A stretch of DNA of 64,000 nucleotides from Candidatus Eiseniibacteriota bacterium (GCA_963762255.1 CAVXKA010000002.1:1120001-1184000), one strand, 5' to 3'; counted from the first letter of the stretch, positions 2,040-58,669 are shown. Program-made: numbers and translations. The notes: generated from the letters alone by a model not told the origin.

Positions 2040-2711
2040 ATGTTCCGCGACCCCATCTTCGACTCGCTCCCCGCGCTCGAGGCCCAGATCGAAGCCGCTC
2101 TCGCCGCCCCCTTGCCCGGCGAGGACGCGCAGATCGTCATGGCCCCCTCGCCGCGGCCCACGCACGAGTGGAACCTCGAGAACGCCCGCACCGCCGCGGC
2201 CCTCCTCGTACTCTATCCTCGACTCGACCGGCCCCATGTCCTTCTGACGCTGCGCAGTCACAACCTTCCGTACCATCGCGGGCAGGTATCGTTGCCGGGC
2301 GGCATGGTGGAGCCGGGCGAGTCACCGGTTGCGGCGGCACTGCGAGAGGCCTATGAAGAGGTCGGCCTCGACCCGACGTCGGTGGAAGTGCTCTGCGATC
2401 TCACCCCGGTGTTCATCCCGGTGACCGGGTTCATCCTGCATCCGTTCGTCGCGGTGGCGCGGCGGGCGCTCACCTTCACGCCACACGAGGCGGAAGTGGC
2501 GCGGGTGCTCGAGATTCCGCTCGAGCACCTCGCCGATCCCGCGACGCAGTGCGTGGAGTCGCGTGTCATTGCCGGTGAGTCGCGTCGCGTGCCCTACTTC
2601 CTCGTGGACGAAGAGAAGCTCTGGGGCGCGACGGCAATGATCCTCGCCGAGTTCATGACGCTGCTCGGGTTTCCACCGATCGCGGGAGATGAACCGACCC
2701 CGGCTAGTTGA
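2040..2711 (+). CDS. Nudix hydrolase, CoA pyrophosphatase (NudL-like)
   Basis: LLTLRS..L..HRGQVSLPGG, Nudix box AALREAYEEVGL, LWGATA. Confidence 0.9.
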   Translation: MFRDPIFDSLPALEAQIEAALAAPLPGEDAQIVMAPSPRPTHEWNLENARTAAALLVLYPRLDRPHVLLTLRSHNLPYHRGQVSLPGGMVEPGESPVAAALREAYEEVGLDPTSVEVLCDLTPVFIPVTGFILHPFVAVARRALTFTPHEAEVARVLEIPLEHLADPATQCVESRVIAGESRRVPYFLVDEEKLWGATAMILAEFMTLLGFPPIAGDEPTPAS

Positions 2712-2885
2712 GACCCTGTCTCGACACGCATCAATTGGCAGGTGCGCTCGATTGCTCCCTGCGCTATCCTGCCCAACGGTCACGGCTTTCACGCCGTTGC
2801 CACCGGGTGAGGATGGGAACCATCCGTCGAAGCTCCCGTGAGGCATTCGAAGGTGCTTCGGGGTCGCGCGGGATGACAGGGAGGC

Positions 2886-4205
2886 ATGACGATGGGAAGA
2901 CGGGTTCCTGGGGAATTGCTCGCGGTGCTCGTATTGTTGGGTCTCGGCACCGCCATGATTACGCCTCGGGGAGCGGAGGCAATACGTCTCCAAGGCACGA
3001 GCAGCACAGCCTTCTACTCCCAAGAGGTCAGCAAGAGCGGAGTCGGCGATGATTTCGAGAACCGGACGAGGGCCTTTGAAAGGCTCCGGTTCGACGTTCT
3101 CGAACTCGGAACCCAGAGCCTCTCTTTCCACGGTTCACTGACCGCGCGCAACGATCTGTCTCACCAGAGCCTCGGCGAGACGCGGACGCGGCTGTACCAC
3201 GGGTACCTCGAGTACCGCCCCCATCCGACGGGAACCAGGAAGCTCGCCTTCCAGTCCCGCCTCGGTCGGCAGTGGGTGACAGCAGGCGTCGGCACGGGAA
3301 CCCTGGACGGCCTCCTCGTGCAGTTCGATCGCCCCGAGTGGGGCGGCGTGACCGTCTACGGCGGAACGCTTGGGATCGACTCCCGCGAGCAGTTGCGGTT
3401 CGACTCGCCGGATGACTCCCGGCGAATCGGCGCGGAGCTGCGCATCCGCCCACGAGTGAGCGAGACGGTCTCCCCCGAGATCAAGGCAAGCTTTGCCGAC
3501 ACGCGCCGGAACGACATGGAAGAATCGCGGCGTCTCGGGCTGCGGGGCGCGCTCCGATTCCGCCGCCAGCTCCAGCTCTGGACGGAACTTCGCCACGACT
3601 TCGTTCTGGATCGGACCTACGGCACCGCTGCAGGATTCGAGTACTTCAGGGCGGCCAGGTACCTGCGCGTCTGGGGCGAGTACAACCGAAGGACCGCAGC
3701 CCTCCCGGCAACGTCCTTCTTCGCCTTCTGGGACTCGAAGCCGGTCACCCAGATGCGCGGCGGTGTCGGGTTCGGGATCGCCGGACCCTATCGCGCGAAC
3801 CTCGAGGTCAACCGGACCGAACTCAAGAGCGAGACGGCCGACGAAGGCTCCTCGACCGAGCACGCCAACGTCTACCGTGTCGTGCTGCAGCGGAACGCCA
3901 TCCAACTGGGAGCGCGATTCGAATCCGGCTTCGCCGGCGACCGGGTCGGCCTCGTGGCCTCTGCGACCCACCGCATCGGCGAGCGGTGGGATCTCCTCGC
4001 CGACCTCGGGTGGCAGACCTATGACTGGGGAGAGACCGATCTCACCGAGAACCACGTCGCGTCAGGGATCTTCGCCGCCACCTTCAAGGCGACCCCGACT
4101 ACCCACATCACCGGGCAGCTCGAAACGCTGAACAACTGGGATCTGAAGCAGGATGTCCGCTTCCTGCTTCGAATCGACAAGCGTTTCCGCCTGGGACGTT
4201 CTTGA
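2886..4205 (+). CDS. Putative outer-membrane beta-barrel protein (porin-like partner of multiheme cytochromes)
   Basis: Signal peptide, alternating amphipathic strands (RLGRQWV), aromatic-ended C-terminal strand; directly upstream of the cytochrome. Confidence 0.65.
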   Translation: MTMGRRVPGELLAVLVLLGLGTAMITPRGAEAIRLQGTSSTAFYSQEVSKSGVGDDFENRTRAFERLRFDVLELGTQSLSFHGSLTARNDLSHQSLGETRTRLYHGYLEYRPHPTGTRKLAFQSRLGRQWVTAGVGTGTLDGLLVQFDRPEWGGVTVYGGTLGIDSREQLRFDSPDDSRRIGAELRIRPRVSETVSPEIKASFADTRRNDMEESRRLGLRGALRFRRQLQLWTELRHDFVLDRTYGTAAGFEYFRAARYLRVWGEYNRRTAALPATSFFAFWDSKPVTQMRGGVGFGIAGPYRANLEVNRTELKSETADEGSSTEHANVYRVVLQRNAIQLGARFESGFAGDRVGLVASATHRIGERWDLLADLGWQTYDWGETDLTENHVASGIFAATFKATPTTHITGQLETLNNWDLKQDVRFLLRIDKRFRLGRS

Positions 4206-4218
4206 GGGGAGATCGACC

Positions 4219-5247
4219 ATGAAAAGCATCACTATCTATAGGACGGGCTGGGTCGCCCTCGCCCTCCTCGCTATGACCGGCCTCTTCGTCGCCGTCGGCG
4301 CAGCCGACGTTCCCTTCTCTCACATGACGCATCGGGAGGCGGGCGCCGAGTGCGCCACCTGTCATCCGAACGCAGCCACGAGCAAGTCGGGCTCAGACCC
4401 GTTGCTTCCCGCGGCCCAGGCCTGTCTGGACTGTCACTCCCAGGAGGACCTGACCGGTTGGGGCGGAGTGCCCGTGGTGGTCGCGAAGAGCGGCTTCCCC
4501 CGTTTCTCCCATGAGGCCCACCTGACTCTGACCAAGGGCGATTGCACGCCGTGCCACGGCGCGCTCACCGATCCGAAGCTCGTCGAAACCGACCAGGGGG
4601 CCCTCGGCCACGCGGCGTGTTTCGACTGCCATGACGGCCGCACCGCCGAGGATCGATGCGAGACCTGTCACGCCGACCTCAGCGTGCTCCGGCCGATCGA
4701 TCACGGCCCGGAATACCAGCACACCCACCAGTTCTCAGCTCGTGGAGCATCGGGGGAGTGCGAGTCGTGCCACCGTCAGAGCGAGCAGTGCAGCCAGTGC
4801 CACCAGGGAGAGAACGTTCTCTTCCTGACGCACGATCGGAACTATCTGTTCACGCACCCTCTTGACGCGCGGAAACACGAGACCGATTGCGCCTCGTGCC
4901 ACGACACGGAGTCCTTCTGCAACGACTGCCACGCCCGTGAGGGGATCGCGCCGGAGAATCACGCCGACGACTGGATCTCCGGACTCAACCGGCACGCGGT
5001 GGAGGCCCGCCGGGACATCGCCTACTGCGCCGGGTGCCACTCGCAGGGCGAGCCGCTCTGCGTCGGCTGTCACCGCGACGCGAATCCGGGCCGCGGCAAC
5101 GATCGCAGCATCCACGGCAGCGGATTCAGCGACTACGACGTCAAGGGCCCGTGGCACGAAGACGATGCCTATTACTGCTTCGACTGCCATACGAAGGCCA
5201 ACGCGGCGGACCGGTTCTGCCAATACTGCCACGGCCAGGAGGACTGA
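4219..5247 (+). CDS. Exported multiheme cytochrome c, 13 CxxCH motifs
   Basis: CATCH, CLDCH, CTPCH, CFDCH, CETCH, CESCH, CSQCH, CASCH, CNDCH, CAGCH, CVGCH, CFDCH, CQYCH; signal peptide; FSH motifs of c3/c7 type; RBS GGGGAG. Confidence 0.92.
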   Translation: MKSITIYRTGWVALALLAMTGLFVAVGAADVPFSHMTHREAGAECATCHPNAATSKSGSDPLLPAAQACLDCHSQEDLTGWGGVPVVVAKSGFPRFSHEAHLTLTKGDCTPCHGALTDPKLVETDQGALGHAACFDCHDGRTAEDRCETCHADLSVLRPIDHGPEYQHTHQFSARGASGECESCHRQSEQCSQCHQGENVLFLTHDRNYLFTHPLDARKHETDCASCHDTESFCNDCHAREGIAPENHADDWISGLNRHAVEARRDIAYCAGCHSQGEPLCVGCHRDANPGRGNDRSIHGSGFSDYDVKGPWHEDDAYYCFDCHTKANAADRFCQYCHGQED

Positions 5248-5362
5248 GCGCGGTCGGGATGGGATGGGAGGGAGTCAATTTGGATAAGCGTTATCGTGTA
5301 TTGACCACGAACGTACGGCCGCAGAATAGTGGCGAACGGACCCGAGACAAGGACGGGAAACT

Positions 5363-6745
5363 ATGTCGATACTAGGAAACTGCCGCGAACGTCACTCGGC
5401 GACGCCGACGACCCTCGTTCTCTTCCTGCTCGTCGCCGCCGCCCTCGCCATCTTCGCCGGCTGCGCCGTCGACAACGACGGCGGCACCCGACCCATTACC
5501 GGCCTGGCTGCGGACTGCAAGGGATGCCACACCGACAAGGACATGCTCGTAGCAACAGCCGCCCCCGATACGTCGACGGGGTCCGAGTCATCGGGAGAGG
5601 GGTGAGGCGGGGAAGTACCTCCGTTGGAGGTATGGGAAAAGTACCAGGTCTCGAGTGCGTTCTTCGCCGACGCTCACGGCGCCTTCTCCTGCACGAGCTG
5701 CCACGGGGGTCAAACCGGCATCAATACCAAGGAAGCAGCGCATGTCGGAATGGTCATCGATCCTTCGGCGGGTGACTCCCCTGCATGCCGGTCCTGTCAC
5801 CTGGGCATCGTGACCAATCACGCCGCCAGTCTCCATGGAACGCAGAACGGCTACATGACCCAGTTCGCGATCCGGACGGGACAGGCGCAGCCGTCGGCAC
5901 AGGTCGAGGCGATGTTCACCGCGCGCTGCTCCGGCTGCCATACGTCATGCGGCCAGTGCCATATCAGCCGACCCACCTCGGTGGAGGGAGGCCTGGTAAA
6001 CGGGCACGTGATCGCACGCAGGCCTTCCCAGACCGACAACTGCACGGCCTGTCACGGAAGCCGCGTCGGGGATGAGTTCCGAGGCCACAATGAAGGCATC
6101 GCCCCCGACGTCCACTACCTCAGGGGGAAGACCTGCTTCGCCTGCCACACCGGAACGGAGCTGCACGGCGACGGGACCACACCGGCGGGCCGCTACGACG
6201 CTCCCGGCGCCCCGGAGTGCACCGACTGTCACCCCGAGGTGTTGACCGACACCGAAAACACGCAACACGACATCCACACGGGGACCGTCGCCTGCCAGGT
6301 CTGTCATTCCGTGGAGTACAAGAATTGCTATAGCTGCCACGTAAAGCTGGATTCGCAGGGGATCCGATTCCCGTCGCGGATGGATTTCCGCATCGGCCGC
6401 AATCCCAACCCGACCGCGGACCGTCCGTGGAGCTACGTTGTGGTGCGGCACATCCCCATCGCTCCCGACAGCTTCGAGCCCTGGGGAGTGAGCCTGCCCC
6501 AGTATGCGGCCACGCCCACGTGGCGGTACGCGACGCCGCACAACATTCAGAAGCGTACGCCCCAGAACGCCACCTGCGATGCCTGCCACGGGGTCCGGGA
6601 CCTGTACCTGACTCCGGAGTACGCCGACACACTGATCGAGGCAGGTCTCATGTTCCAGGAGGAGATCCAGGCGAACGACGGCATCTTCGTTCGCCAGTTG
6701 CCAGAGAACACGGCCCTGTTTATGGGCCGCCGGGAAGGAGAATAG
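5363..6745 (+). CDS. Predicted selenocysteine-containing multiheme cytochrome c lipoprotein (11 CxxCH; UGA at 5603-5605)
   Basis: ORFs 5363-5605 and 5624-6745 are in the same frame, separated only by TGA (SGEG-U-GGEVPPLEVWEK); lipobox IFAG-C; 1+10 heme motifs; hairpin follows UGA. Confidence 0.8.
5615..5633 (+). promoter_or_regulatory. Candidate bacterial SECIS element
   Basis: GTACCTCC-GTT-GGAGGTAT: 7 Watson-Crick pairs plus a G-U pair, loop starts with G 17 nt after the UGA. Confidence 0.7.
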
Positions 6746-6749
6746 TGAG

Positions 6750-7769
6750 ATGAAGAAGGTTGTACAGCTGGCCCTGATGGGGCTGGCACTCGCTGGATTG
6801 CTGACCGCCTGCGGAGGCGACGACTCGGATCCGACCCCGGTCGATCAATTCGAGATCGTGCGCACCTCGCTTGACACGTACCTGTCCTCGGCGGGGATGG
6901 CCCCGACCACGACCGCCCAGGTGCTGTTCGACAACCTGAACGACGGCAACACGGCCAATGACCCGTACGTGCTCAGCGTGCGCACCACGGACGACTATGC
7001 CAAGGGGCATGTCGCCGGTGCCCACAACATCAACTGGCGTCTGATCGGCAACGCCACGAATCTGGCAACGCTGCCCACGGACAAGCAGATCGTGGTCTAT
7101 TGCTACACGGGTCACACCGGCGCCGTAGCCACCACCTGCTTGAACGCCATGGGCTACAACGCGGTCAACATGAAGTTCGGAATGTGCGCCTGGACCCGGG
7201 ACGCCACCGTGCGGGCCACCACCGCTTTCCGGGAGGTCGAGGACTCTCACGACTACCCGACGGAGACCACGGCCAACGCGCTGACCCAGACCTATAACCT
7301 GCCGGAATTGAATGTGACCACCTCGCGGGACGAGGACGAGATCGTCCGGGCTGCGGCGGAGGACTACGCGGCGGACGCGACCGTCTCTCCGACGATCACC
7401 GCCCAGACCGTCTTCGACAACATCAACGACGGCAACACCGCCAACGACTACTTCATCCTGAGCGTCCGCTCGGCCGCCGACTACGCGAAGGGACACATCC
7501 CCGGCGCGTACAACATCCCCTACAAGGAGATCGCGAAGGTCGAGAACCTAAGGAAGCTCCCCACCGATAAGACGATCGTCGTCTATTGCTACACCGGTCA
7601 TACCGGCGGCACTGCGACGACCGCCCTGCGGATGCTCGGCTATCAGGCCGTCAACATGAAGTTCGGGATGACGGCGTGGACGCGGGATGCGACGGTGCGG
7701 GCCACCACCGCCTTCCGGGAAGTCGAGGACTCCCACGACTACCCGTTCACCACCGGGGTTAACCCCTAG
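6750..7769 (+). CDS. Tandem rhodanese-domain (sulfurtransferase) lipoprotein
   Basis: Lipobox LLTA-C; two repeats of SVR...DYAKGH(V/I)xGA...IVVYCYTGHTG. Confidence 0.9.
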   Translation: MKKVVQLALMGLALAGLLTACGGDDSDPTPVDQFEIVRTSLDTYLSSAGMAPTTTAQVLFDNLNDGNTANDPYVLSVRTTDDYAKGHVAGAHNINWRLIGNATNLATLPTDKQIVVYCYTGHTGAVATTCLNAMGYNAVNMKFGMCAWTRDATVRATTAFREVEDSHDYPTETTANALTQTYNLPELNVTTSRDEDEIVRAAAEDYAADATVSPTITAQTVFDNINDGNTANDYFILSVRSAADYAKGHIPGAYNIPYKEIAKVENLRKLPTDKTIVVYCYTGHTGGTATTALRMLGYQAVNMKFGMTAWTRDATVRATTAFREVEDSHDYPFTTGVNP

Positions 7770-7785
7770 TCCGTTCCTGACGGCG

Positions 7786-7852
7786 GCGGCCGGCGTTTCC
7801 CCGAGGGGCCTGATCAGCATCCCCCGCGGAGGCGCCGGCCGCTTCCTTTTCT
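7786..7852 (+). terminator. Rho-independent terminator of the cytochrome-rhodanese cluster
   Basis: GCGGCCGGCG(T)TTCC...GGAGGCGCCGGCCGC stem followed by TTCCTTTTCT. Confidence 0.6.
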
Positions 7853-7892
7853 TGCCGCCACCCCGACCCACCCTCTACCCGCCGACCGGCCC

Positions 7893-8552
7893 CTACCTCC
7901 CCCGCTTCGCCCCTCTGACGAACGCCGCATAGAACACGAGGCACCCCAGCGCGAATCCTGCCACGTAGGGAACGATCGGGAACCCCGAAGCCGCTCCCCC
8001 TCCGGTCATCCGTGTCCCGGCGATAAGGAACGACGCCAGGAGCAGCCCGAACGACGCCAGCGCCCCCGCCCACAGCCACCAACGCATCCGCGGTCGCCCG
8101 CCGCAGTCGCTGAAGTGCATGATCCACGCACCCGCCACCACCAGGCTCAATGCGATCAGCACCGCCGTCCAGACCGGCCCAAGCCACGGCGACGGCAACA
8201 GGAAGAGCACGTCCCACGTGCCCAGGCTCTCCGGCCAGCCGATCGCGGCGCGAAGGCCGAGGTAGTAGACGATGTCCCACACGCCGAATACGACGCAGAA
8301 CGCGCCGAATCGCGCCCACGCGCGCCGTCGCGCCAGCATGGCCACGGTGAAGAGCATGAGGATCGTGGCCGCCTCGCGCGCCGTCTCCACACGCATGACA
8401 TGGTTCTCGGGGAGTACCAGGGGAAATAAGAAACCCCTGGGGAAGTAGAGCGCGCGTAGGTAGACCACGACCGCGGCTTCGACAATGCCGAATCCGATCC
8501 CGAAGAGGATCAGCCAACCGAGGTCGCGTCCGGTTCGGCGGGGGCTCGTCAT
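7893..8552 (-). CDS. Conserved hypothetical membrane protein
   Basis: EAAVVVYLR, REAATILML, WDIVYY, TWDVLFLLPSPW motifs; 5-6 TM segments. Confidence 0.75.
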   Translation of the reverse strand: MTSPRRTGRDLGWLILFGIGFGIVEAAVVVYLRALYFPRGFLFPLVLPENHVMRVETAREAATILMLFTVAMLARRRAWARFGAFCVVFGVWDIVYYLGLRAAIGWPESLGTWDVLFLLPSPWLGPVWTAVLIALSLVVAGAWIMHFSDCGGRPRMRWWLWAGALASFGLLLASFLIAGTRMTGGGAASGFPIVPYVAGFALGCLVFYAAFVRGAKRGR

Positions 8553-12973: not shown

Positions 12974-13075
12974 GGCTGAATCTCCTGATCGGGGGACGCT
13001 ACCTTCCGCCCCGCCTTGGGTTGGATTACTGTAGAGTGCCTCGTCGGCCCCTGCCAACCAAGGAGACCGCTGCCC

Positions 13076-15157
13076 ATGGCGTCCGACAACACGAATTCTT
13101 CGGAGGGCCTCGTCCCGCCCCCCGATATCAACCCCCGTCGGGAACCCGCTCTCGACTTCCCCGATCGCGATCTGGGCGGCATGTCCCCCGCGGACTACGA
13201 AGCGATCGGATTCATGGCCGGGCTCGAGGTACACCAGCAACTCCTCACGCGGAGCAAGCTCTTCTGCCGGTGTCCCTCCGGGCACTACGTCACCCACTGC
13301 GACGCCGAGGTGCTCCGCCACATGCGCCCCACCTTGAGCGAGCTGGGCGAGTACGACGGCACGGCCCTCATGGAGTTCAAGACCCACAAGGAGATCGTCT
13401 ACCTGCTCGAGCGTGGCACGGTCTGCACGTACGAGATGGACGACACGCCGCCGTTTCCGATCGACGAGGAAGCGGTCAAGGTCGCGCTCGAGGTTGCGCT
13501 GCTCTTCAACTTGAACCTGGTCTCCGAACTGCACGTGATGCGCAAGCAATACCTCGACGGATCGATCCCGACCGGGTTCCAGCGCACCGCGATGCTGGGA
13601 CTGGCCGGGGCCATCCCCTTCCGCGTGCCCGCACTGGGGATCGATCGCGAGCTGCGCATTCGCCAGCTCTCGCTCGAAGAGGATTCCTGCCGCGAAGTGT
13701 CGGACGTCGGCCATCGCATCACGTTTCGCACCGACCGGCTCGGCATGCCGCTCACCGAGGTCGTGACAGAACCCGATTTCCGCACCCCGCTCGAACTTCA
13801 GGCCGGCGGGCGGCTGATCGCCAATGTCACGCGGACGAGCGGGAAGGTGCGCCGAGGCGTCGGCGCGGCCCGCCAGGACGTCAACGTATCGGTGGCGGGC
13901 GGGCGCCGCGTCGAGATCAAGGGCGTGCCCCATCACCGCGGGCTGCCCGCGCTGGTGCACATCGAGGGCTTCCGCCAGTTGAACCTGCTCCGGGTGAAGG
14001 CCGAACTGGAGCGCCGCGGCGTGAAGTCCGAGACCCTCGTGATCCCCGAAGGGGCCAAGGCGTGGGACACCTCGCCCTTGGTGATCGACGCAAGCTCGGC
14101 GCTTCGCCGCTCCGAATACGCGCCGCTCCGCGACGTCCTGGATCGCGGCGAGATGGCCGCGGCGCTACGGCTCCCCGACTTCGGCGGGTTGCTCACCCGC
14201 CGCACGCAACCCGGGGTGACCTTCGCCAACGAACTCGCCGACCGCGTGCGGGTCATCGCCTGCCTCACCGCGCGCCCGTTCATGATCCACTCCGACATCG
14301 AGGGCTACGGGCTGAGCCACGCCGAGTGGCGCCAGTTGCGCACATCGCTTCGCGCCGCGCCGGGGGACTCGCTGATGGTGCTGTGGGGCCCCGAGCGCGA
14401 CGTCGACACCGCAGTTCGCGAGGTATTCATCCGCGCGCGCGAGGCGCTGGCCGGCGTTCCCGCCGAGACCCGCCAGGCCTACGCGGACGGCACCAACGGA
14501 TTCGAGCGCATCCTCCCCGGCGCGGATCGCATGTACCCCGACACCGACACGCCTCCGCTCCCGATTCCCGACGCGTGGGTCGACGCGATCCGCGTCCATC
14601 CCGCGGAGAGGACGTGGGAGAAGGAGGATCGCTACCGGGCGCTGGGGCTCGACGCTTTCGCCTCGGCGCGGCTCGCCGCAGCCCCCTGGTCCGCGGTCTT
14701 CGACGCCGTCGCCCCCTCCGCGGGCGAACCGGCCCGCCGCCTCGCCTTCGGGCTGGAGAAGCGCGTCCCCCACTTCCGTCGCCGCAGGGTGCTCGACGGC
14801 CTCCCCGCTGCCGACCGCATCGCCTGCGCCGTACGCGCTCTGGAACGCGGGGAGATGCGCGCCGAGGCCTTCGAATCCGCATTCGATCGGCTCATCGAGA
14901 ATCCGTCGCAGCCGGCGGACGCGATCCTCGCCGCCTACCGCGCGACCGCGGGCGACACGGCCAACCTCGGCCGCGCGGTCGCGGATGTCGCCTCGCGCGC
15001 CTCCATCATGGCCGGCAAACCCGCCGAGGCCGTGATGCGATGGGCGATGGGAGAGATTCTTCCCCCCTTCCTCGGCCGCGTGAGTCCGGAGGACGCCGGC
15101 GCGCGGCTGCGCGAGGCCCTGAAGCCCCTTCTGGAGAACACCGCCCATGTCCGATGA
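13076..15157 (+). CDS. gatE: Glu-tRNA(Gln) amidotransferase subunit E (archaeal-type)
   Basis: GLEVHQQL..KLFCRCP, LSELGEYD, MRKQYLDGSIPTGFQRT, LEEDSCR, RQDVNVSV, AspRS-like insert, PGADRMYPDTD. Confidence 0.9.
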   Translation: MASDNTNSSEGLVPPPDINPRREPALDFPDRDLGGMSPADYEAIGFMAGLEVHQQLLTRSKLFCRCPSGHYVTHCDAEVLRHMRPTLSELGEYDGTALMEFKTHKEIVYLLERGTVCTYEMDDTPPFPIDEEAVKVALEVALLFNLNLVSELHVMRKQYLDGSIPTGFQRTAMLGLAGAIPFRVPALGIDRELRIRQLSLEEDSCREVSDVGHRITFRTDRLGMPLTEVVTEPDFRTPLELQAGGRLIANVTRTSGKVRRGVGAARQDVNVSVAGGRRVEIKGVPHHRGLPALVHIEGFRQLNLLRVKAELERRGVKSETLVIPEGAKAWDTSPLVIDASSALRRSEYAPLRDVLDRGEMAAALRLPDFGGLLTRRTQPGVTFANELADRVRVIACLTARPFMIHSDIEGYGLSHAEWRQLRTSLRAAPGDSLMVLWGPERDVDTAVREVFIRAREALAGVPAETRQAYADGTNGFERILPGADRMYPDTDTPPLPIPDAWVDAIRVHPAERTWEKEDRYRALGLDAFASARLAAAPWSAVFDAVAPSAGEPARRLAFGLEKRVPHFRRRRVLDGLPAADRIACAVRALERGEMRAEAFESAFDRLIENPSQPADAILAAYRATAGDTANLGRAVADVASRASIMAGKPAEAVMRWAMGEILPPFLGRVSPEDAGARLREALKPLLENTAHVR

Positions 15158-16535
15158 CAGCACCAAGGGCTACCGCGAACCGTGTGTCGGCGTGATGCAG
15201 CGCTTCGGGATCCGCGTGTGGAGCATCGTCTTTGCCCGTACCACGCGCGGCGACTTCCGCGGACTCGTGCTCCCCCGCTCCGAAACCTCGGATCCGTTTC
15301 ACATCGTATTGAAGCTCAACACCGGCTACAACGTGGGGATCCGCTCCGATACGATCCTAGAAATGCGCGAAGAAGGCTATAAAGAGGCGATCTACAAGAT
15401 CCCGGAGAAAGCGTTTCCGGTGGATCCCAAGAAACCGCGCGTGCGACTGCTGGGAACCGGCGGCACGATCGCCTCGCGCCTCGACTACCGCACCGGCGCG
15501 GTCATCCCGGCCTTCAGCCCCGGCGAGCTCTACGGCTCCGTGCCCGAGCTCGCCGACATCTGCAATCTCGAGACGCTCAAGCTCTTCGGCGTGTTCTCCG
15601 AGAACATGGGACCGGAGCAGTACCTGGAACTCGCGGAGAAGGTCGGCGAGGCCATTCGCGAGGGTTTCGCGGGGGTCGTGGTCGGGCACGGCACCGACAC
15701 CATGCACCACACCGCGGCGGCGCTGAGCTTCATGGTGCAGCGCCCGCCGGTGCCCATCATCATGGTGGGGAGCCAGCGCTCCTCGGACCGGCCCTCTTCC
15801 GACGCCGCGCAGAATCTCATCAACGCCACGTGGGCCGCGGCCGGCGGCCCCATCGCCGAAGTCATGGTGTGCATGTTCGGCCCCACGTCGGACCGCTACA
15901 ACCTGCTCCACCGCGGAACGCGCGTGCGCAAGATGCACAGCTCCTATCGGAGCACCTTCCGCACCATCGGCGACATCCCGCTGGCGATGGTCGAGAACGG
16001 CAAGGTCACTCCGCTCAAGACCGATTACGCCCGCCGCCGCGACGACCGCGAGGCGGAGGTGTTGGCCCGATTCGAGGAGAAGATCACGCTTCTCTACTAC
16101 TATCCCAACATGCTCCCCGACCTGATCGACGCGATCGTGGACAAGGGGTACAAGGGGATCATCATCGCGGGGACGGGGCTGGGGCACGTGAATCGCAAGA
16201 TCTACCCCGCGATCGAGCGCGCGCACAAGGCGGGCGTGCTCATGTTCATGACGCTGCAGACCCTGTGGGGCTTCGTGCAAATGCAGGTGTACGAGACCGG
16301 ACGCGAAATCCTGGGCCTCGGGGTGATCCCGCTCGCCAACATGCTCCCCGAGGTCGCCTACATCAAACTGGGCTGGGCGCTGGGCGTCCATCCCGACGAT
16401 CCGGAAGCGGCGATCGCCCTCATGAAGCAACCCATCGCGGGAGACATGACCGAGCGCGAGCCCCACGACGGGTACTTGATCTTTCAGGGCGGGGTGCCGG
16501 AGATCCAGGACTTCCTGGCCCACGCCTGGAAATAG
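15147..16535 (+). CDS. gatD: Glu-tRNA(Gln) amidotransferase subunit D (asparaginase-like)
   Basis: N-terminal LKLNTGYNVGI domain, GTGGTIASRLDYRTGAV, HGTDTM, GSQRSSDRPSSD; overlaps gatE. Confidence 0.92.
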   Translation: MSDDSTKGYREPCVGVMQRFGIRVWSIVFARTTRGDFRGLVLPRSETSDPFHIVLKLNTGYNVGIRSDTILEMREEGYKEAIYKIPEKAFPVDPKKPRVRLLGTGGTIASRLDYRTGAVIPAFSPGELYGSVPELADICNLETLKLFGVFSENMGPEQYLELAEKVGEAIREGFAGVVVGHGTDTMHHTAAALSFMVQRPPVPIIMVGSQRSSDRPSSDAAQNLINATWAAAGGPIAEVMVCMFGPTSDRYNLLHRGTRVRKMHSSYRSTFRTIGDIPLAMVENGKVTPLKTDYARRRDDREAEVLARFEEKITLLYYYPNMLPDLIDAIVDKGYKGIIIAGTGLGHVNRKIYPAIERAHKAGVLMFMTLQTLWGFVQMQVYETGREILGLGVIPLANMLPEVAYIKLGWALGVHPDDPEAAIALMKQPIAGDMTEREPHDGYLIFQGGVPEIQDFLAHAWK

Positions 16536-20012: not shown

Positions 20013-21000
20013 ATGCCCACCAACGTCCCGCCCCAGTACCGCAGCGCGGAAGCCCGCTACCGCGCGGCCACGACGCCCGAGGACAAGCTTGCCGCGTTGG
20101 AAGAGATGCTGCGCATCATGCCCAAGCACAAGGCCACGGACAAGCTCCAGGCCGACGTCAAGTCCCGCATCTCCAAGCTCCGCCAGCAGGAGCAGTACGT
20201 CGAAGAAGCACGGCGGCACCCATAGCCACATGGTGCCGCGCGAGGGGGCGGGACAGGTGGTCCTGGTGGGCCCTCCCAACAGCGGAAAGTCCTCGCTCCT
20301 GGCGGAGCTGACCCATGCGGAGCCCAAGATCGGCGAGTTTCCCTTCACCACGCTGGAGCCGTTGCCGGGAATGATGGCGTTCGAGGACGTCTCGATCCAG
20401 CTCATCGACCTGCCTCCCGTCTCGCGCGACCACGTCGAGCCGTGGATCTACGATCTCGTCCGGCGCGCCGATCTGCTGTGGATCGTGGTCGAGAGCGCAG
20501 CCTCCCTGGACGGAATCGAACTATGCCGCTCGCTCCTGGAGGCGAAGCGCATCGAGGCGCAGCCGCCGTTGACGGCGGCGCCTGACGGCGCCGATCCGGC
20601 GACCACGTACAAGCCGGCGCTCCTCGTCCTTACCGGATTCGACAAGCCGGAGAGCGAGGAGAACCTTGCGCTCCTGCGCGAGTTGATCGAGATCCCATGG
20701 CCGTGCCATGCGGTTTCCGTCCGCGACGGGCGCGGACTCGAGGAGCTGCGCAGAGCCACCTTTGACGCGCTCGATGTGATCCGCGTCTACACCAAGGAGC
20801 CGGGCAAACACCCGGACATGGAGAAACCGTTCACGCTGCGTCGCGGGTCCAATGTGGGGGACCTGGCCGCCACCATCCACCGCGACATCGCCCAGCAGCT
20901 CCGCTTCGCGAAACTGTGGGGCAAGGGCGTCTTTGACGGTCAGCCGGTGCAGTGCGATCATGTCCTCAGCGACGGCGATGTGGTGGAGCTTCACTTGTGA
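20013..21000 (+). pseudogene. DRG/Obg-family GTPase with TGS domain, frameshifted near 20185-20200
   Basis: MPTNVPP...PKHKATDKL in one frame; GQVVLVGPPNSGKS, FPFTT, QLIDLP and TGS (RVYTKEPG...DGDVVELH) in the +1 frame. Confidence 0.8.
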
Positions 21001-21047
21001 TTCTCTCTCACCCTGCGGCAGTATTCGCGGGATCCAAGGAGTCGAAC

Positions 21048-22403
21048 ATGAAACGGAGACGCGGCGCGTCGGCGGTGCTTCTGGCGCTGTTCGCGATAGT
21101 CGGGTGGGGATGTGGAAGCAATAGCGTCACCCCTGCGCCCATCTTGACCACGGGGGACTTCGTGGTGGTGGCGTGGAACGATCTGGGCATGCACTGCCTC
21201 AATCCCACCTACGATCAGGCGGTCATCCTCCCGCCCTACAACACGGTGTGGGCCCAGGTGATCAGGCGGGGGAACCCGCCCCAGATCCAGACGGCGAACA
21301 TCACGGTCGACTATCGGATACTCGGCAACACGTACTCCTATGGAAAGACCGATAGTCATGGCGGGGTGTTCGCGCAGTTCTGGGACAACATGCAGCACCT
21401 CTTCGGCGCGTCGCTTCCCCACGACCGGGGGCTGAACCTGGAGGATCCGAGCCTCCACAACGGTCTCTCCGGCACCATGAAGTCCGCCGGTGACCACTTC
21501 CAGGTGAACGGGATTCCGCTGGTGCCGGTGAGCGATGCCGGCGTCTGGAACCCGTACCAGGTGGCCGAGATCGCCGTGCTGAACGCAGCGGGCGACACCC
21601 TGGCCAAGACCCGGTGCACGGTGCCCACTTCGGACGAGCTCAATTGCGCCAAATGCCACGCGCAGAACGGCACCGGGACCAGTTCCATCGGGGGCGGCAC
21701 CGCCGATGTGTTCAAGAACATTCTGTCCGTCCATGATGCGCTCCAGCAGACGACCCTGGCGGCGGACGCGCCCGTTCTGTGCGCCTCGTGCCACGCGAGC
21801 CCGGCGCTGGGGACGCCGGCCCCCACCGATCCCGGCATGTACCTCTCCGCGGCCATCCACGGCTTCCACGTCGGCAGGAACGCAGACTGCTACGACTGCC
21901 ACCCCGGCGGCACGACGAGCTGCAATCGCAGCATCGCACACACCGCGACCGGTGGGAACTGCACGACCTGCCACGGAGCGTTGGATCAGGTGTCTTCCTC
22001 GATCCGCACCGCCGGCCGCGTGCCGTGGGTGCAAGAGCCCAAGTGCTCGGACGCCGGCTGCCATACGGCCACGCAGGACGTGGACACGGGATCCACGCTC
22101 TACCGCAACGCCAAGGGGCACGGCGGCGTCTACTGCGCGGGCTGCCACGGGAGCCCGCACGCCATGGTCCCGAGCAGCGAAGCCGCCGACAACTACCAGG
22201 CGATCCAATACCAGGGAAGCCACCGGGTCAGCACGCTGGGGAGCTGCCATGCCTGCCACGGCAACTCGCAAGGGGAAGGCTTCGGGGAGTTTGGCGAGGA
22301 GCACGGCCCGGGCGGAAGGTCTTCGGCGTGCAACATCTGCCACACCGAGGTACCGGACAACCACTCCGCGGCGCCGCACTCCTTCACCTGGAGGAGGCGC
22401 TGA
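21048..22403 (+). CDS. Multiheme cytochrome c lipoprotein (7 CxxCH + 1 CX4CH)
   Basis: Lipobox GWG-C; VVAWNDLGMHC N-domain; CAKCH, CASCH, CYDCH, CTTCH, CSDAGCH, CAGCH, CHACH, CNICH. Confidence 0.88.
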   Translation: MKRRRGASAVLLALFAIVGWGCGSNSVTPAPILTTGDFVVVAWNDLGMHCLNPTYDQAVILPPYNTVWAQVIRRGNPPQIQTANITVDYRILGNTYSYGKTDSHGGVFAQFWDNMQHLFGASLPHDRGLNLEDPSLHNGLSGTMKSAGDHFQVNGIPLVPVSDAGVWNPYQVAEIAVLNAAGDTLAKTRCTVPTSDELNCAKCHAQNGTGTSSIGGGTADVFKNILSVHDALQQTTLAADAPVLCASCHASPALGTPAPTDPGMYLSAAIHGFHVGRNADCYDCHPGGTTSCNRSIAHTATGGNCTTCHGALDQVSSSIRTAGRVPWVQEPKCSDAGCHTATQDVDTGSTLYRNAKGHGGVYCAGCHGSPHAMVPSSEAADNYQAIQYQGSHRVSTLGSCHACHGNSQGEGFGEFGEEHGPGGRSSACNICHTEVPDNHSAAPHSFTWRRR

Positions 22404-55193: not shown

Positions 55194-56633
55194 CTACGCC
55201 GGCGTCTTGCCGATGACCCCCGCCGTGCCGGTGCGAAGCAAGGCTTCCATCTCGAGCCGCGGCGTCGTTACCGCAAGCGACTCGTAGAAGCGCGCGCGCT
55301 CGATCCACTCGCCTGCGAGGGCGAGCGCGAAGACACCCAGCGTTGCCGCGGGGTCGTCGGAGAGCATCCGCAACGCCGGAGCGGCGATGAACCCCAGAGC
55401 GATGCGCAGTGCGGGTAGAGCCATCCGCGCGCGCACGAAGGTCCGACCCGAGAACGTGACGTAGGCCCGGGCGACGCCTATCGGTACCCAGAGCCAGACG
55501 GGGCCGATCGCGAGCGCGGCCAGATAGAGGCTGCCAATGAAGATGGGGCCGGCCGGGAGCATTCGGCGTCGGGCGCCCACGACCCCGGTCGGAGGCAGGA
55601 TCACCGAGTACACGCGGTCCACGGCGAAGGCGGAGGCGAAGCCGAGGAGAGCCACCACCCAACCCGCTCCCGGCCGAACCTGATGCGGCGCCGTCCTCAC
55701 CGTCCACGAGGCGATCAGCATCCACGCCGCCGAGAGGCCGAGGAAGCTGCCGACGAGCAGGACCTCCCGGCTGAGCCACGAAGTTCGCCAGTTGATCGCC
55801 GCGCGCCACGCGCGCTCCGGGCGACCGAGGTGCCACATCGAGAGCGCGAGCGCGGCCAATCCGACGCCCGCATAGGCCAGCGCCCCACCGAGGCGCACAG
55901 TCATCCCACCGGCCTGCGCCGCCGCGAACACCGCAACCAACGCAAGCACCGCGCTCGTGAAGGCGAAGAGCGTCCACTCTCCTCGCAACGTGATTTTGGA
56001 TCGACTCGATGGGCTCGCGATCGTCGCGACGTCCGCTGGCTTCTCCTGCTCGATGTGAACTGCCCCATCGCGCAGGGGAACGAACCGGATGGCCGGTCGC
56101 AGGTCCGTGTGCCGGAATCCGGGCACTCCGCCGTGCGCGCCGCCTTTGCGCGCAGCGCCCCCGGTTTCGTCTCCGCGCGCCGCGTCCCCGATTTCGAGCG
56201 CGCCCGTGGGGCACGCCTCCACGCAGGCCGGCCGCCCGCCGTCCACGAGCCGATGATGGCAAAACGTGCACTTCTCGACGGTGCCGGTGCCCGCGTTGAA
56301 GCGCGGCGCATCGTAGGGGCAGGCCCAGGTGCAGTACCGGCAACCGATGCAACGTTCGGCGTCGACGAGTACCGCACCGGTCACCGCGTCCCGCGTGTAG
56401 GCATTCGTCGGACATGCGGTCAGACAGGCGGGTTTCTCGCAGTGGTTGCAGGCCAGGGAGAGCGAGAACGAGGGAATCGCGGGGATGCGAGCTTCGTTAT
56501 AGGTGTCGATCCGCCGCCAGTCCAGGCCGCCTGCGTCGATGCGGTCGGGTGCGTTCTCGATCCCGCACGCGATCGCGCAGGCGTGGCAGCCGGTGCAGCG
56601 GTTCAGATCGAAGACGAAGGCGCGACGGGTCAC
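55194..56633 (-). CDS. Fused DmsB-like 4Fe-4S subunit + DmsC-like membrane anchor
   Basis: CTGCHACAIAC, CNHCEKPAC..ACP, CIGCRYCTWACPY, KCTFC; HLGRPERAWRA..NWRTSWLSRE; GTG start overlaps the upstream stop. Confidence 0.9.
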   Translation of the reverse strand: MTRRAFVFDLNRCTGCHACAIACGIENAPDRIDAGGLDWRRIDTYNEARIPAIPSFSLSLACNHCEKPACLTACPTNAYTRDAVTGAVLVDAERCIGCRYCTWACPYDAPRFNAGTGTVEKCTFCHHRLVDGGRPACVEACPTGALEIGDAARGDETGGAARKGGAHGGVPGFRHTDLRPAIRFVPLRDGAVHIEQEKPADVATIASPSSRSKITLRGEWTLFAFTSAVLALVAVFAAAQAGGMTVRLGGALAYAGVGLAALALSMWHLGRPERAWRAAINWRTSWLSREVLLVGSFLGLSAAWMLIASWTVRTAPHQVRPGAGWVVALLGFASAFAVDRVYSVILPPTGVVGARRRMLPAGPIFIGSLYLAALAIGPVWLWVPIGVARAYVTFSGRTFVRARMALPALRIALGFIAAPALRMLSDDPAATLGVFALALAGEWIERARFYESLAVTTPRLEMEALLRTGTAGVIGKTPA

Positions 56634-58669
56634 CGCTCCACCTCGACGCGATTCTCGTGGAAGGCGGCGCCGTGACCGATATCGGTCTCCCGCGCACACG
56701 AGAGGAAATTCACCGTCCCCCCGCGCTGGATCCAGTACCCGTTCGGGGTCGAGACGCACCCCGGCCTCAATCCGTGATCGAACCGCACCGGGAGCCGGAG
56801 CTCGCCGCGGTCGTTGAACACGCGCACGCGATCGCCCTCGCGGATCAAGCGCGCGGCGGCGTCGGAAGGGTGCATGGAGAGGACGGGACCGGGATCGATC
56901 CGGCGGATCAGCGCGAGGTTGTGGAACTGCGAGTGGATCCCGTTCTTGGTGTTGGGCGTCATGAAGTGGAGCGGGTACCGCGAGGCGGCGCGGCCGGCTT
57001 CGACCGGCTCCGCGTAGCGCGGCAACGCGTCGACTCCCCACCGCTCCTCCGCCTCGCGGGAAAGGATTTCGATCCGGCCCGAAGGCGTCGGGAAAATGTG
57101 ATCGCGAAACGCCACTTCTTCCGTGCCCGGCGCGAGGACGGGACCCTCGGCTAGGCGCTCCAGAGTCAAACCGGGAAAGGGCGCCAGCCTCTCGCGCAGG
57201 AACGCCTCGACCTCCGCATCGGACGGCCCCGGAATCCTGCCGCGCAGCTCCTCCTCCGAGAACCCGAGCCGGCGCGCGAGCGCGTGATAGATCTCGGTCT
57301 CGGGCTTCACCTCGGGGGGCGGATCGACGATCTTCTGCTTGAGCTGAATGTAGGAATGCCAATAGGCGCCGATGACGTCCGACTGCTCGAAGATCGCCTT
57401 GGCGGGTAGGACGATGTCCGCCTCGCGCGCGGTGTCGGTGAGGAACTCGTCCACCACGACTCGAAACTCGAGCCCACGGATGGCGCGCAGGACGGTGTGC
57501 GTCTCGGGATTCTGCGTCACCGGGTTTCCGCGCTCGACCCACATCATGCGCAGGGGCGGATCCTTCTGCACGAGCATGTCGGGACCGAGGCGCGCGGTGG
57601 AGATCGAAACTCGCGCGATCCCGTCCGGTGTCTGCGGCGGGTAGAAGGCCAGCGGGTCGCGCACCGAGTCGAAGATGTGCGATTGAAGGTTAGCGTAGAC
57701 CCACCCCGCGCCCGGTCTTCCGATGTTCCCGGTGACGGCGAGCAGCGCGATGATGGCCCGCATCGACTGCCCCGCGTTGGTGTAGCGCTGCATGCCGAAG
57801 CCGGCGTTGATCGTGACGGGGCGCACCGTCCCGATCGCCTCGGCCAGGTGCCGGATCTGCACGACGGGCACGCCGCTGATGGCGGCGGCCGCCTCGGGCG
57901 GGAACTCCTCCAGCAGCGCCGCGAACTCGGTGAAGCCCAGCACGTGCGATGCAACGAACCCCGAGTCGATCCAGCCGTTCTTCACCAGAACATGCGCCAC
58001 ACCCAGCGCGAGCGCGCCGTCCGTCCCCGGCCGCGGCCGCACGAGAAGCTCGGCGTGCTCCGCGGAAACGGTGCGGCGGGGGTCGATCACGATGAGCCGC
58101 GCACCGCGCTTCAGCGCTTCATCCACGAGGCGGACCAGGTGCACGTTAGTCTCGGCGGGGTTCTTTCCCCAGAGTACGATGAGCCCCGCGTTCTCGATAT
58201 CCCACGGTGCCGAATGCGTGTTCGCGCCGAGGGTGAGCCGCGTGGCCTCGAGGCCAGCCGGCCAGCAGAGATCGCCGTACGTGGTGGTGTATCCGCCGTA
58301 GAGCCGCCAGAACTCGGGACCGACGCGGTTCAAGAGCCCCTTCGTGCCGCTCCCGGTGTAATAGAGGACGCTCTGCGGGCCGTCGCTCGCGCGGAAACGC
58401 CGGAGCTTCTCTTCAATCGTATCGAGCGCTTCATCCCACGAGATGCGATCGAACTCGCGCGTGCCGGCGCGACGCCGAAGCGGCCACCGCAGGCGGTGGG
58501 GCGAGACGAGGCGCTCGACGTAGCTCTGCCCTTTGAGGCAGACTCCCTCCGGCGTGGCGAGGTTGTCGGGATGCGACTCGATGCGCACCACCCGACCGCC
58601 CTCGACGAACACCTTCATCGAGCAGGTGCTGTAGCAGTTGCGCGGACAGGCGGTGGTGAGACTCTCCAC
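56630..58669 (-). CDS. Molybdopterin oxidoreductase catalytic subunit (DMSO reductase superfamily, no Tat signal)
   Basis: CPRNCYSTC...CLKG FS0 motif, ISWDEAL, GDLCWPAG, RPGTDGAL, TDTAREADIVLP. Confidence 0.92.
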   Translation of the reverse strand: MESLTTACPRNCYSTCSMKVFVEGGRVVRIESHPDNLATPEGVCLKGQSYVERLVSPHRLRWPLRRRAGTREFDRISWDEALDTIEEKLRRFRASDGPQSVLYYTGSGTKGLLNRVGPEFWRLYGGYTTTYGDLCWPAGLEATRLTLGANTHSAPWDIENAGLIVLWGKNPAETNVHLVRLVDEALKRGARLIVIDPRRTVSAEHAELLVRPRPGTDGALALGVAHVLVKNGWIDSGFVASHVLGFTEFAALLEEFPPEAAAAISGVPVVQIRHLAEAIGTVRPVTINAGFGMQRYTNAGQSMRAIIALLAVTGNIGRPGAGWVYANLQSHIFDSVRDPLAFYPPQTPDGIARVSISTARLGPDMLVQKDPPLRMMWVERGNPVTQNPETHTVLRAIRGLEFRVVVDEFLTDTAREADIVLPAKAIFEQSDVIGAYWHSYIQLKQKIVDPPPEVKPETEIYHALARRLGFSEEELRGRIPGPSDAEVEAFLRERLAPFPGLTLERLAEGPVLAPGTEEVAFRDHIFPTPSGRIEILSREAEERWGVDALPRYAEPVEAGRAASRYPLHFMTPNTKNGIHSQFHNLALIRRIDPGPVLSMHPSDAAARLIREGDRVRVFNDRGELRLPVRFDHGLRPGCVSTPNGYWIQRGGTVNFLSCARETDIGHGAAFHENRVEVER

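Follow-up and report, generated by a model that had tools for sequence, protein, structure and literature searches.

Near the start of a 64,000-nt stretch of DNA from a Candidatus Eiseniibacteriota bacterium (GCA_963762255.1, CAVXKA010000002.1:1120001-1184000), four genes form a cluster that consists of two separately conserved two-gene modules: module A (2886-5247), an outer-membrane β-barrel with a 13-heme cytochrome, and module B (5363-7769), an 11-heme cytochrome with a predicted selenocysteine (Sec; we call this protein the Sec-cytochrome) together with a tandem rhodanese. The coupling is lineage-specific and joins a new porin-cytochrome pair to a Sec-cytochrome/rhodanese pair that is both new and widespread. 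From the parts, their partners and the precedent of the Geobacter selenoenzyme MccSep, the function that we lean towards is a sulfane-sulfur relay, in which sulfur would pass from the rhodanese cysteines to Sec81 and be reduced by way of the heme chain, in this organism at the cell surface. The features of the cluster are listed below in coordinates of the window, by which we mean the whole 64,000-nt stretch (aa, amino acids; ORF, open reading frame; SECIS, selenocysteine insertion sequence).

2886..4205, plus strand: outer-membrane β-barrel, 439 aa, signal peptide, 22 predicted strands (ORF, AlphaFold2 model)
4219..5247, plus strand: periplasmic 13-CxxCH cytochrome with c7/c3-type repeats, 342 aa (ORF, motif count, PF14522)
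5301..5330, plus strand: promoter-like site, sigma-70-like, in the 115-nt gap between the gene pairs (motif scan)
5363..6745, plus strand: predicted lipoprotein 11-CxxCH selenocysteine cytochrome, 460 aa, U81 (TGA read-through)
5603..5605, plus strand: UGA, predicted to be read as selenocysteine, motif G-E-G-U-G-G (conservation across loci)
5615..5633, plus strand: SECIS-like hairpin with an 8-bp stem and loop GUU, beginning 12 nt past the UGA (fold and covariation)
6750..7769, plus strand: tandem-rhodanese lipoprotein, 339 aa, with Cys118 and Cys280 each in CYTGHTG (PF00581)
7828..7856, plus strand: terminator-like hairpin (7828-7846) plus T-rich tail (terminator scan)

This anatomy is the one laid out in the original prediction, which was made from the window's sequence and described four co-oriented envelope genes encoding a β-barrel, a 13-CxxCH protein, an 11-CxxCH protein with an in-frame UGA and a two-domain rhodanese set off by a 4-nt spacing. 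ORF calling places all four genes on the plus strand, and a scripted count finds 24 CxxCH motifs in all, 13 of them in the second protein and the other 11 in the third. The intergenic gaps of 13, 115 and 4 nt divide the genes into two tight pairs, with the rhodanese ATG lying 4 nt past the Sec-cytochrome stop. The ATG of the 13-heme gene at 4219 precedes a signal peptide without a lipobox, and an alternative start, for a longer protein, is found at 4153.

On comparative sequence evidence, the UGA at 5603-5605 is very likely read as selenocysteine. The Sec-cytochrome ORF comes in two pieces, 5363-5605 and then, in the same frame past one TGA, 5624-6745, and reading through the TGA yields a protein of 460 aa whose residue 81 is U and whose signal peptide ends in the lipobox FAGC. 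Gene callers instead treat the UGA as a true stop, which would give a one-heme lipoprotein of 80 aa and a separate cytochrome of 373 aa, and in keeping with such annotation 111 of the best 120 database proteins span no more than 81% of the read-through protein, which is expected when gene callers start past the UGA. We regard this alternative as very improbable: the ORF past the UGA has neither a signal peptide of its own nor any other export signal, which speaks for read-through because a c-type cytochrome needs export, and the frame and motif across the TGA are conserved in relatives, some homologues carry Cys at the site, the hairpin that follows covaries and the full Sec machinery is present. 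Specifically, the source genome (G000; 3 contigs, 4.14 Mb, completeness 93.6%) encodes SelA, SelB and SelD, all over cut-off, and a tRNA-SeC with anticodon TCA, as identified by ARAGORN. The TGA at 5245-5247 is the ordinary stop of the neighbouring 13-heme gene, so the genetic code is standard. The SelD match of this genome (C2:841489-842421; L010) holds one in-frame TGA and is probably itself a selenoprotein.

To place the site in a wider context, we drew the 80 best related loci from species-representative genomes (one genome per species). An in-frame TGA stands at the Sec position in 78 of the 80, 76 of them by pattern and L032 and L042 by reading of the translations; the exceptions are L074, which has Cys, and L031, which has neither Sec nor Cys. 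In L046 (labelled Gemmatimonadota; 3328 region), the TGA at the Sec site is accompanied by an in-frame stop two codons earlier, which may reflect a pseudogene or an assembly error. Within the phylum of the window, which we surveyed in 206 genomes, 19 of the 23 Sec-cytochrome matches have exactly one TGA. The nine database relatives that are longer, and thus full-length, carry Cys at the site in four cases (P0024, P0054, P0082 and P0119) and neither Cys nor Sec in five.

The RNA that follows the UGA carries a signal of its own. Across 72 distinct sequences, 87.0% of cells pair in the hairpin, compared with 41.8-50.7% once the 3′ partner has been shifted by 1-3 columns, and 51 cells are changed on both sides, compared with 18.2 in shuffles, none of the 500 shuffles reaching 51. 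At pair 16-28, for example, 37 sequences have CG and 30 have GC. In the alignment, the compensating changes alter the encoded residues (V-P-P...E-V versus V-A-P...E-P), from which it follows that the RNA structure, beyond the peptide alone, is under selection. We built the case for a SECIS element on this covariation because the single-sequence fold of the post-UGA region is non-significant (z -1.53). An Rfam scan of 2500-8200 at E ≤ 5 gave three chance-level matches and no SECIS family, the coverage of this element by Rfam being unchecked. The selenocysteine assignment made in the original prediction thus gains support from the conserved TGA, the covarying hairpin and the presence of SelA, SelB and SelD with tRNA-Sec.

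The Sec-cytochrome belongs to a large family that lies outside the Pfam and NCBIfam models. Among 8000 candidates scored, 2807 database relatives match at E ≤ 0.001, and a scan of one genome per species returned at least 599 pattern matches, of which at least 585 encode a Sec-cytochrome relative. The titles of the best 80 loci name Eisenbacteria, Phycisphaerae, Calditrichota, KSB1, Gemmatimonadota, Krumholzibacteriota, Ignavibacteria, many Anaerolineae and Dehalococcoidia, and some Actinomycetota, and many of the genomes that carry the Sec-cytochrome are Chloroflexota without the barrel. All 80 of these nearest records are titled as metagenome-assembled genomes, which fits the earlier description of the lineage as probably uncultured. 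None of 34 members of the family reaches a curated cut-off in Pfam or NCBIfam. The commonest matches below cut-off are to ExtM (28 of the 34, best E 2.6e-12; cut-off 800 bits) and to DmsE-type decaheme models (27 of the 34), and TIGR04315, the octaheme tetrathionate reductase model, is weakly matched by three of the 34 (best E 1e-4) and not by the protein of the window.

Position 81 is Sec or Cys in every one of a set of 74 full-length relatives. Outside the heme motifs, residues conserved in the same set include ten His, Met256 (in 67), Tyr319 and four Arg; Cys is conserved there at just two places, the lipobox Cys34 and the Sec/Cys81 site itself. Ten His and one Sec against 11 hemes would be suggestive as a tally of distal ligands, yet we give it no weight, since the 13-heme partner shows 12 for 13. 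At some Anaerolineae loci, such as L045, L061, L064 and L065, the Sec-cytochrome has 13 CxxCH motifs through a C-terminal extension.

The AlphaFold2 model of the Sec-cytochrome has a pLDDT of 73.8, with residues 74-85 of the Sec loop below 50. Exhaustive structural alignment of this model singled out one structure, the octaheme tetrathionate reductase (OTR) 1sp3_A, with a Z of 8.2 and a root-mean-square deviation of 4.3 Å over 260 residues (model 102-454), and the next match has a Z of 3.3. Foldseek found nothing below E 0.43 for the model and phmmer nothing below E 0.08 among PDB sequences; a profile search of PDB sequences gave local matches only, to 28pb_A (E 7.9e-6), OcwA (E 1.2e-4), NrfB and NrfA. 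In the ESM Atlas we found generic cytochrome c7/c554 clusters only (318-452 aa) and, for the barrel, clusters of ‘hypothetical protein’. OTR, OcwA and NrfA are catalytic multiheme enzymes that act on sulfur and nitrogen oxyanions, and the fold match to 1sp3_A, combined with the weak profile matches to OcwA, NrfA and NrfB, hints that the Sec-cytochrome may be an enzyme instead of a plain wire. OTR differs in having 8 hemes, compared with 11 here, and the N-terminal heme and the Sec loop have no counterpart in the aligned range.

The second member of module B contains two PF00581 rhodanese domains (E 6.5e-33) behind a lipobox of sequence LTAC, and its catalytic residues, Cys118 and Cys280, lie in six-residue CYTGHT loops. 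A tandem rhodanese adjoins the Sec-cytochrome in 73 of the 80 loci, across many phyla, downstream of it in most loci and directly upstream in Dehalococcoidia; two of the seven loci without an adjacent rhodanese have a contig edge right at the gene. Both catalytic Cys are retained in 70 of 74 rhodanese partners, and the remaining four are short or truncated ORFs. The Anaerolineae loci L045, L061, L064 and L065 and their like encode rhodanese partners of 566-604 aa, compared with the usual ~340, and so have extra domains.

The neighbours that module B has in other lineages speak for membrane respiration and sulfur. Found beside the pair are, in Dehalococcoidia loci, a Tat-type 4Fe-4S protein (14 loci), cytochrome b561 (11) and a CsoR-family regulator (12); in Anaerolineae loci, a LysR regulator (32), Ccm genes and a CCG/4Fe-4S membrane protein (11); and in FCB-type loci, a sigma-54 PAS activator (7). 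We read the Tat-type protein, the cytochrome b561 and the CCG/4Fe-4S protein as respiratory input modules. The CsoR-family regulator of the Dehalococcoidia loci has two conserved Cys, and Tyr where the Cu-sensing CsoR has His, a two-Cys, His-less pattern that we take to be a mark of the persulfide-sensing CstR. The neighbourhoods with CsoR-family regulator, Tat-type 4Fe-4S protein and cytochrome b561 in Dehalococcoidia are L035-L043, L055, L057, L063, L066 and L079.

These partners bear on a different view of module B, in which the Sec-cytochrome would serve mainly as an electron-transfer terminal for a metal oxide or an electrode, and the Sec and the rhodanese would be accessory to it, in repair, sulfide tolerance or maturation. 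Matches of relatives to PF22113, a model like domain II/IV of MtrC/MtrF, would be in keeping with such a role, as would weak matches to DmsE and to OmcA/MtrC, ORFs with 35 and 36 hemes elsewhere in the genome and the five of nine full-length database relatives with neither Sec nor Cys. It is harder to reconcile with a rhodanese adjacent in 73 of the 80 loci, with the retention of Sec in 78 of the 80 despite its cost, and with the frequency of the pair in Chloroflexota that have membrane quinol-type input modules and no conduit; we consider an accessory role of this kind quite improbable.

Module A is a further unannotated porin-cytochrome family. The barrel falls into no Pfam or NCBIfam family and none of 32 relatives reaches a Pfam cut-off, although its profile collects 873 cluster representatives at E ≤ 0.001, of which 139 still match at E ≤ 1e-30. 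That 2886-4205 should model as a β-barrel had been set beforehand as a test, and the AlphaFold2 model is all-β with 22 strands (pLDDT 85.5, pTM 0.75). Its top structural matches, among them SusC (5t3r_D, Z 19.6), FyuA (Z 18.8) and FimD (Z 18.3), are outer-membrane barrels of 22 to 24 strands with a protein domain in the lumen; MtrB (6r2q_B) is found at rank 20 with a Z of 15.3. The 13-heme cytochrome matches PF14522 (E 3.2e-18), and its matches are confined to c7/c3-type models. In the phylum survey the barrel occurs in 22 genomes, and a homologous cytochrome of 11-14 hemes is encoded directly after it in 21 of them, the last being cut by a contig end. Elsewhere in the phylum the pair adjoins other ORFs with 4 to 9 hemes.

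A predicted complex of the two proteins scored 0.61 (0.72, 0.56 and 0.61 in three runs), compared with 0.00 for the best of three controls; 116 of 157 solved complexes and 2 of 215 mismatched pairs reach this mark. The runs share at least 41% of their contacts, with a partner pLDDT of at least 70. In the model, alternate, lumen-facing residues of nearly all barrel strands contact cytochrome residues 141-281, which supports an MtrAB-like arrangement in which the cytochrome would lie inside the lumen. The porin-cytochrome pair of the original prediction is thus supported by adjacency in 21 of 22 genomes and by a complex model with the cytochrome in the lumen. The MtrAB and Geobacter Pcc conduits have the same organization, with a barrel gene beside a gene for a periplasmic multiheme cytochrome and a lipoprotein cytochrome alongside. 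Membership by sequence is a separate matter, as the barrel has no match to the MtrB_PioB model of Pfam and the 13-heme protein no match to DmsE/MtrA at E ≤ 0.01; MtrB, furthermore, we take to be a 26-strand barrel, compared with 22 predicted strands here.

The treatment of the four genes as a single module, as in the original prediction, is not supported. Of the 80 Sec-cytochrome loci, 10 have a barrel homologue and 70 lack one; 13-heme homologues are present in 8 and never without the barrel. In the phylum the Sec-cytochrome is found in 22 genomes, the barrel likewise in 22 and both in 8, and the modules are adjacent in three of these (the genome of the window, G052 and G050) and 43 kb apart in G010. 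The barrel pair lies upstream of the Sec-cytochrome in the window, L022 and L025, and downstream of the rhodanese in L030, L031 and L053, which are Calditrichota-type loci. These differing gene orders in unrelated lineages indicate that the modules came together on more than one occasion, and this speaks for a functional link between them where both occur.

The sole characterised heme selenoenzyme is MccSep (ExtKL, GSU2937-2936) from Geobacter sulfurreducens, described in 2026 as the enzyme that had been missing from sulfur respiration in Geobacter; it is a polysulfide-reducing multiheme protein that forms a periplasmic homotetramer with five hemes, an Ig-like domain and Sec325 in a D-G-U-P loop beside heme 2, which is His/Cys-ligated, and it prefers polysulfide over selenite, which is a poorer substrate (PMC13510729). 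MccSep and the Sec-cytochrome are both c-type multiheme proteins with one Sec from an in-frame UGA and a hairpin downstream of it, both have a rhodanese-like lipoprotein and a porin-like barrel encoded nearby, both are usually mis-annotated as two ORFs, and a sulfur/selenium redox role is proposed for both. MccSep, however, is a soluble periplasmic protein with 5 hemes and an Ig-like C-terminal domain, whereas the Sec-cytochrome has 11 hemes and a lipobox. The Sec of MccSep lies about 100 residues from the C-terminus in D-G-U-P, whereas U81 lies near the N-terminus in G-x-G-U-G-G, and the conserved Cys that ligates heme 2 in MccSep finds no equivalent, there being no conserved extra Cys in the Sec-cytochrome. 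The known distribution of MccSep covers Desulfobacterota and Nitrospirota, whereas the Sec-cytochrome is centred on Chloroflexota and FCB-type phyla. NF040886, the MccSep/ExtKL model (cut-off 250 bits), does not match the read-through protein at E ≤ 0.01, and in a search of the whole genome nothing passes its cut-off, the best score being 20.5 bits at another locus. Membership of the Sec-cytochrome in the ExtKL/MccSep family is ruled out by this result, the heme count, the position of the Sec and the missing ligand Cys.

The original prediction had drawn a parallel to the Geobacter ext cluster, and this parallel holds in principle, as a likeness of parts, not by descent. The extHIJKLMNOPQS cluster likewise brings together a rhodanese-like protein, a porin-like one of about 45 kDa and several cytochromes of multiheme type (PMC5877670). 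The combination of rhodanese, porin and heme selenoprotein is therefore shared, whereas the closer correspondences fail: beside the lack of an NF040886 match, the genome has no ExtJ (NF040942), a set of 30 ORFs of the window gives no Rieske or cytochrome b match that could correspond to the bc-type subunits ExtO/ExtP, the NCBIfam search brought up no ExtH or ExtI model for the rhodanese or the barrel, its coverage of these two being unconfirmed, and the 12-heme ExtM has a weak local likeness to the Sec-cytochrome that recurs in 28 of the 34 members and stays far below cut-off. A further difference from the ext cluster is that the barrel has a 13-heme cytochrome as its partner, predicted to lie inside it.

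The ext parallel also raises the possibility that the true substrate is a selenium or tellurium oxyanion, in respiration or detoxification, with the rhodanese handling selenium. MccSep turns over selenite too, less efficiently (PMC13510729), and loss of ExtI leaves selenite and tellurite reduction impaired (PMC5877670). The weak, recurrent likeness to ExtM, whose operon NCBI names ‘selenite/tellurite reduction’, and weak matches of the rhodanese to selenium-related rhodanese models would be consistent with such a substrate. The ExtM matches, nevertheless, lie far below cut-off (best 2.6e-12, against a cut-off of 800 bits), and the Sec-cytochrome family is very widespread in lineages of sediment, soil and groundwater. 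In these settings sulfur species far exceed selenium, which we count against an oxyanion of selenium or tellurium as the main substrate, and we deem it improbable.

In the sulfane-sulfur relay that we favour, module A would carry electrons across the outer membrane through a 22-strand barrel threaded by the periplasmic 13-heme cytochrome, and module B would be a terminal redox enzyme pair made up of the lipid-anchored 11-heme cytochrome, with U81 in a flexible Gly-rich loop, and the lipid-anchored tandem rhodanese. The rhodanese Cys would take sulfane sulfur from polysulfide, elemental sulfur (S0) or thiosulfate as a persulfide and transfer it to the U81 selenolate, where a Se-S adduct would form; electrons arriving through the heme chain would then reduce this adduct to sulfide. 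Module B would, in this organism, lie at the cell surface and be supplied by module A. A plausible side or alternative substrate is selenite. The link to sulfur is drawn from the rhodanese partner, from the two-Cys CsoR-family regulator in 12 Dehalococcoidia loci and from MccSep being a polysulfide reductase.

By analogy, module B would be functionally like Geobacter MccSep/ExtKL combined with a Sud-type sulfur carrier, in a different protein family. In the Sud-Psr system of polysulfide respiration in Wolinella, a periplasmic carrier of rhodanese type hands polysulfide sulfur to the terminal reductase, which is a molybdoenzyme; the likeness to the Sec-cytochrome/rhodanese pair is functional only, as Psr is no heme selenoprotein. 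As for earlier descriptions, the heme-related entries of a 2026 review of prokaryotic selenoproteins, in the passages that we surveyed, are ExtKL (NF040886), the GSU2204 family (NF041027) and the TIGR04315 octaheme family (PMC13188914), and the Sec-cytochrome belongs to none of these three. We found no description in the full-text literature of an 11-heme cytochrome with an N-terminal Sec paired with a rhodanese, though subscription journals and supplements may hold one.

The direction of electron flow is not fixed by anything in the sequence, and the pair could also run in reverse, oxidising sulfide, polysulfide or thiosulfate at the Sec/heme site and sending electrons inward through the heme chain, here via the conduit, by analogy to the oxidations that TsdA or SoxAX perform at His/Cys hemes. 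The mechanism of MccSep has been likened by its authors to reversed TsdA/SoxAX chemistry (PMC13510729), and a cytochrome c with cbb3-type domains lies near the pair in Anaerolineae loci. The characterised heme selenoenzyme is nevertheless a reductase, the fold match is also to a reductase, and the 64-kb window shows no Sox or Dsr genes, the genome as a whole not having been surveyed for them. We regard oxidation as unlikely, and return to the reductive relay.

Several observations weigh against the relay or narrow its reach. The substrate, the direction of electron flow and the location are all things that we infer, and the abundance of other large multiheme cytochromes in the genome makes metal reduction an equally natural setting. 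The model of the Sec-cytochrome is heme-free and its Sec loop (74-85) has a pLDDT below 50, so that any placement of U81 relative to a heme would be tentative, and the Z of 8.2 for 1sp3_A is at the edge of the range that the tool calls informative. Ten conserved distal His for 11 hemes are non-specific, given the 12 for 13 of the partner cytochrome. Five of the nine full-length database relatives have neither Sec nor Cys, so that the residue is dispensable in some lineages. The passing score of the barrel/13-heme complex may reflect likeness to the solved MtrAB complex 6r2q. Finally, with 70 of the 80 loci lacking a barrel and adjacency in just three genomes of the phylum, ‘extracellular’ would apply to a minority of the family at most.

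More tentatively, we entertain the broader possibility that module B represents a second, independently evolved class of heme selenoenzyme: lipid-anchored, with 11 to 13 hemes and a Sec on a Gly-rich arm that would ligate a heme or hover over it, supplied with sulfane sulfur directly by a dedicated tandem rhodanese, in a relay from rhodanese to selenium to heme that reduces the sulfur of polysulfide or thiosulfate. Such enzymes, obscured by faulty annotation at the UGA, would perhaps be among the most widespread respiratory selenoproteins, especially in Chloroflexota, and would act outside the cell in a few diderm lineages by way of a new family of porin-cytochrome conduits.

The remaining features of the locus are less telling. 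A promoter-like site at 5301-5330 would fit two transcription units, and is non-significant by itself, with one site found in the scan and 0.7 expected. The terminator that had been placed at the end of the cluster corresponds to a hairpin that is indeed present at 7828-7846; by itself it is weak evidence, because such sites are no rarer than chance in the region (5 sites, 3.4 expected). Unrelated housekeeping genes flank the cluster: upstream lies one for a NUDIX hydrolase, and downstream, on the opposite strand, are those for a membrane protein and a GH57 enzyme. A search of sequencing runs gave 0.19 as the highest share of sampled words in any run. In four RNA-library runs, contigs 90-99% alike to parts of all four genes were found; these belong to relatives, and one of them (X19, 545 nt) spans the UGA. 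Such contigs are weak hints of expression, with DNA carry-over possible, and no proof of transcription or of the state of the codon.

About 13 kb downstream of the cluster, at 20952-22403 on the plus strand, the window encodes another cytochrome, with 7 CxxCH motifs and weak matches to MtrC/MtrF domain II/IV and to c7 models. Outside the window, the genome contains ORFs with 35, 36 and 19 CxxCH motifs (C2:1067450-1070074, C3:876531-879311 and C2:800994-803870, respectively), as well as several clusters of multiheme ORFs, and this wealth of large multiheme ORFs suggests an extensive capacity for extracellular electron transfer. Two other loci of the window are of separate interest. Adjacent genes at 13016-16535 on the plus strand, with Pfam matches to GatB_N (713 aa) and to Asparaginase plus GatD_N (462 aa), look like an amidotransferase of GatE/GatD type, a pair that we take to be archaeal and that is found here in a bacterial genome. 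At 56630-58669 on the minus strand lies a molybdopterin oxidoreductase with Fe4S4, Molybdopterin and Molydop_binding domains.

The Sec-cytochrome family is unrelated in sequence to MccSep, lies outside all Pfam and NCBIfam models and spans many phyla, with at least 585 species-level genomes that carry it. Most of its database entries appear to be cut at the UGA, and so to have lost the signal peptide, the first heme and the Sec, as a result of which metabolic reconstructions of Chloroflexota, Eisenbacteria, KSB1, Calditrichota and others miss this cytochrome. If it does reduce sulfane sulfur or selenium, it would add a common route to the sulfur and selenium cycles of sediments and the subsurface, and would show a way in which rhodanese carriers can feed a heme-selenium site.

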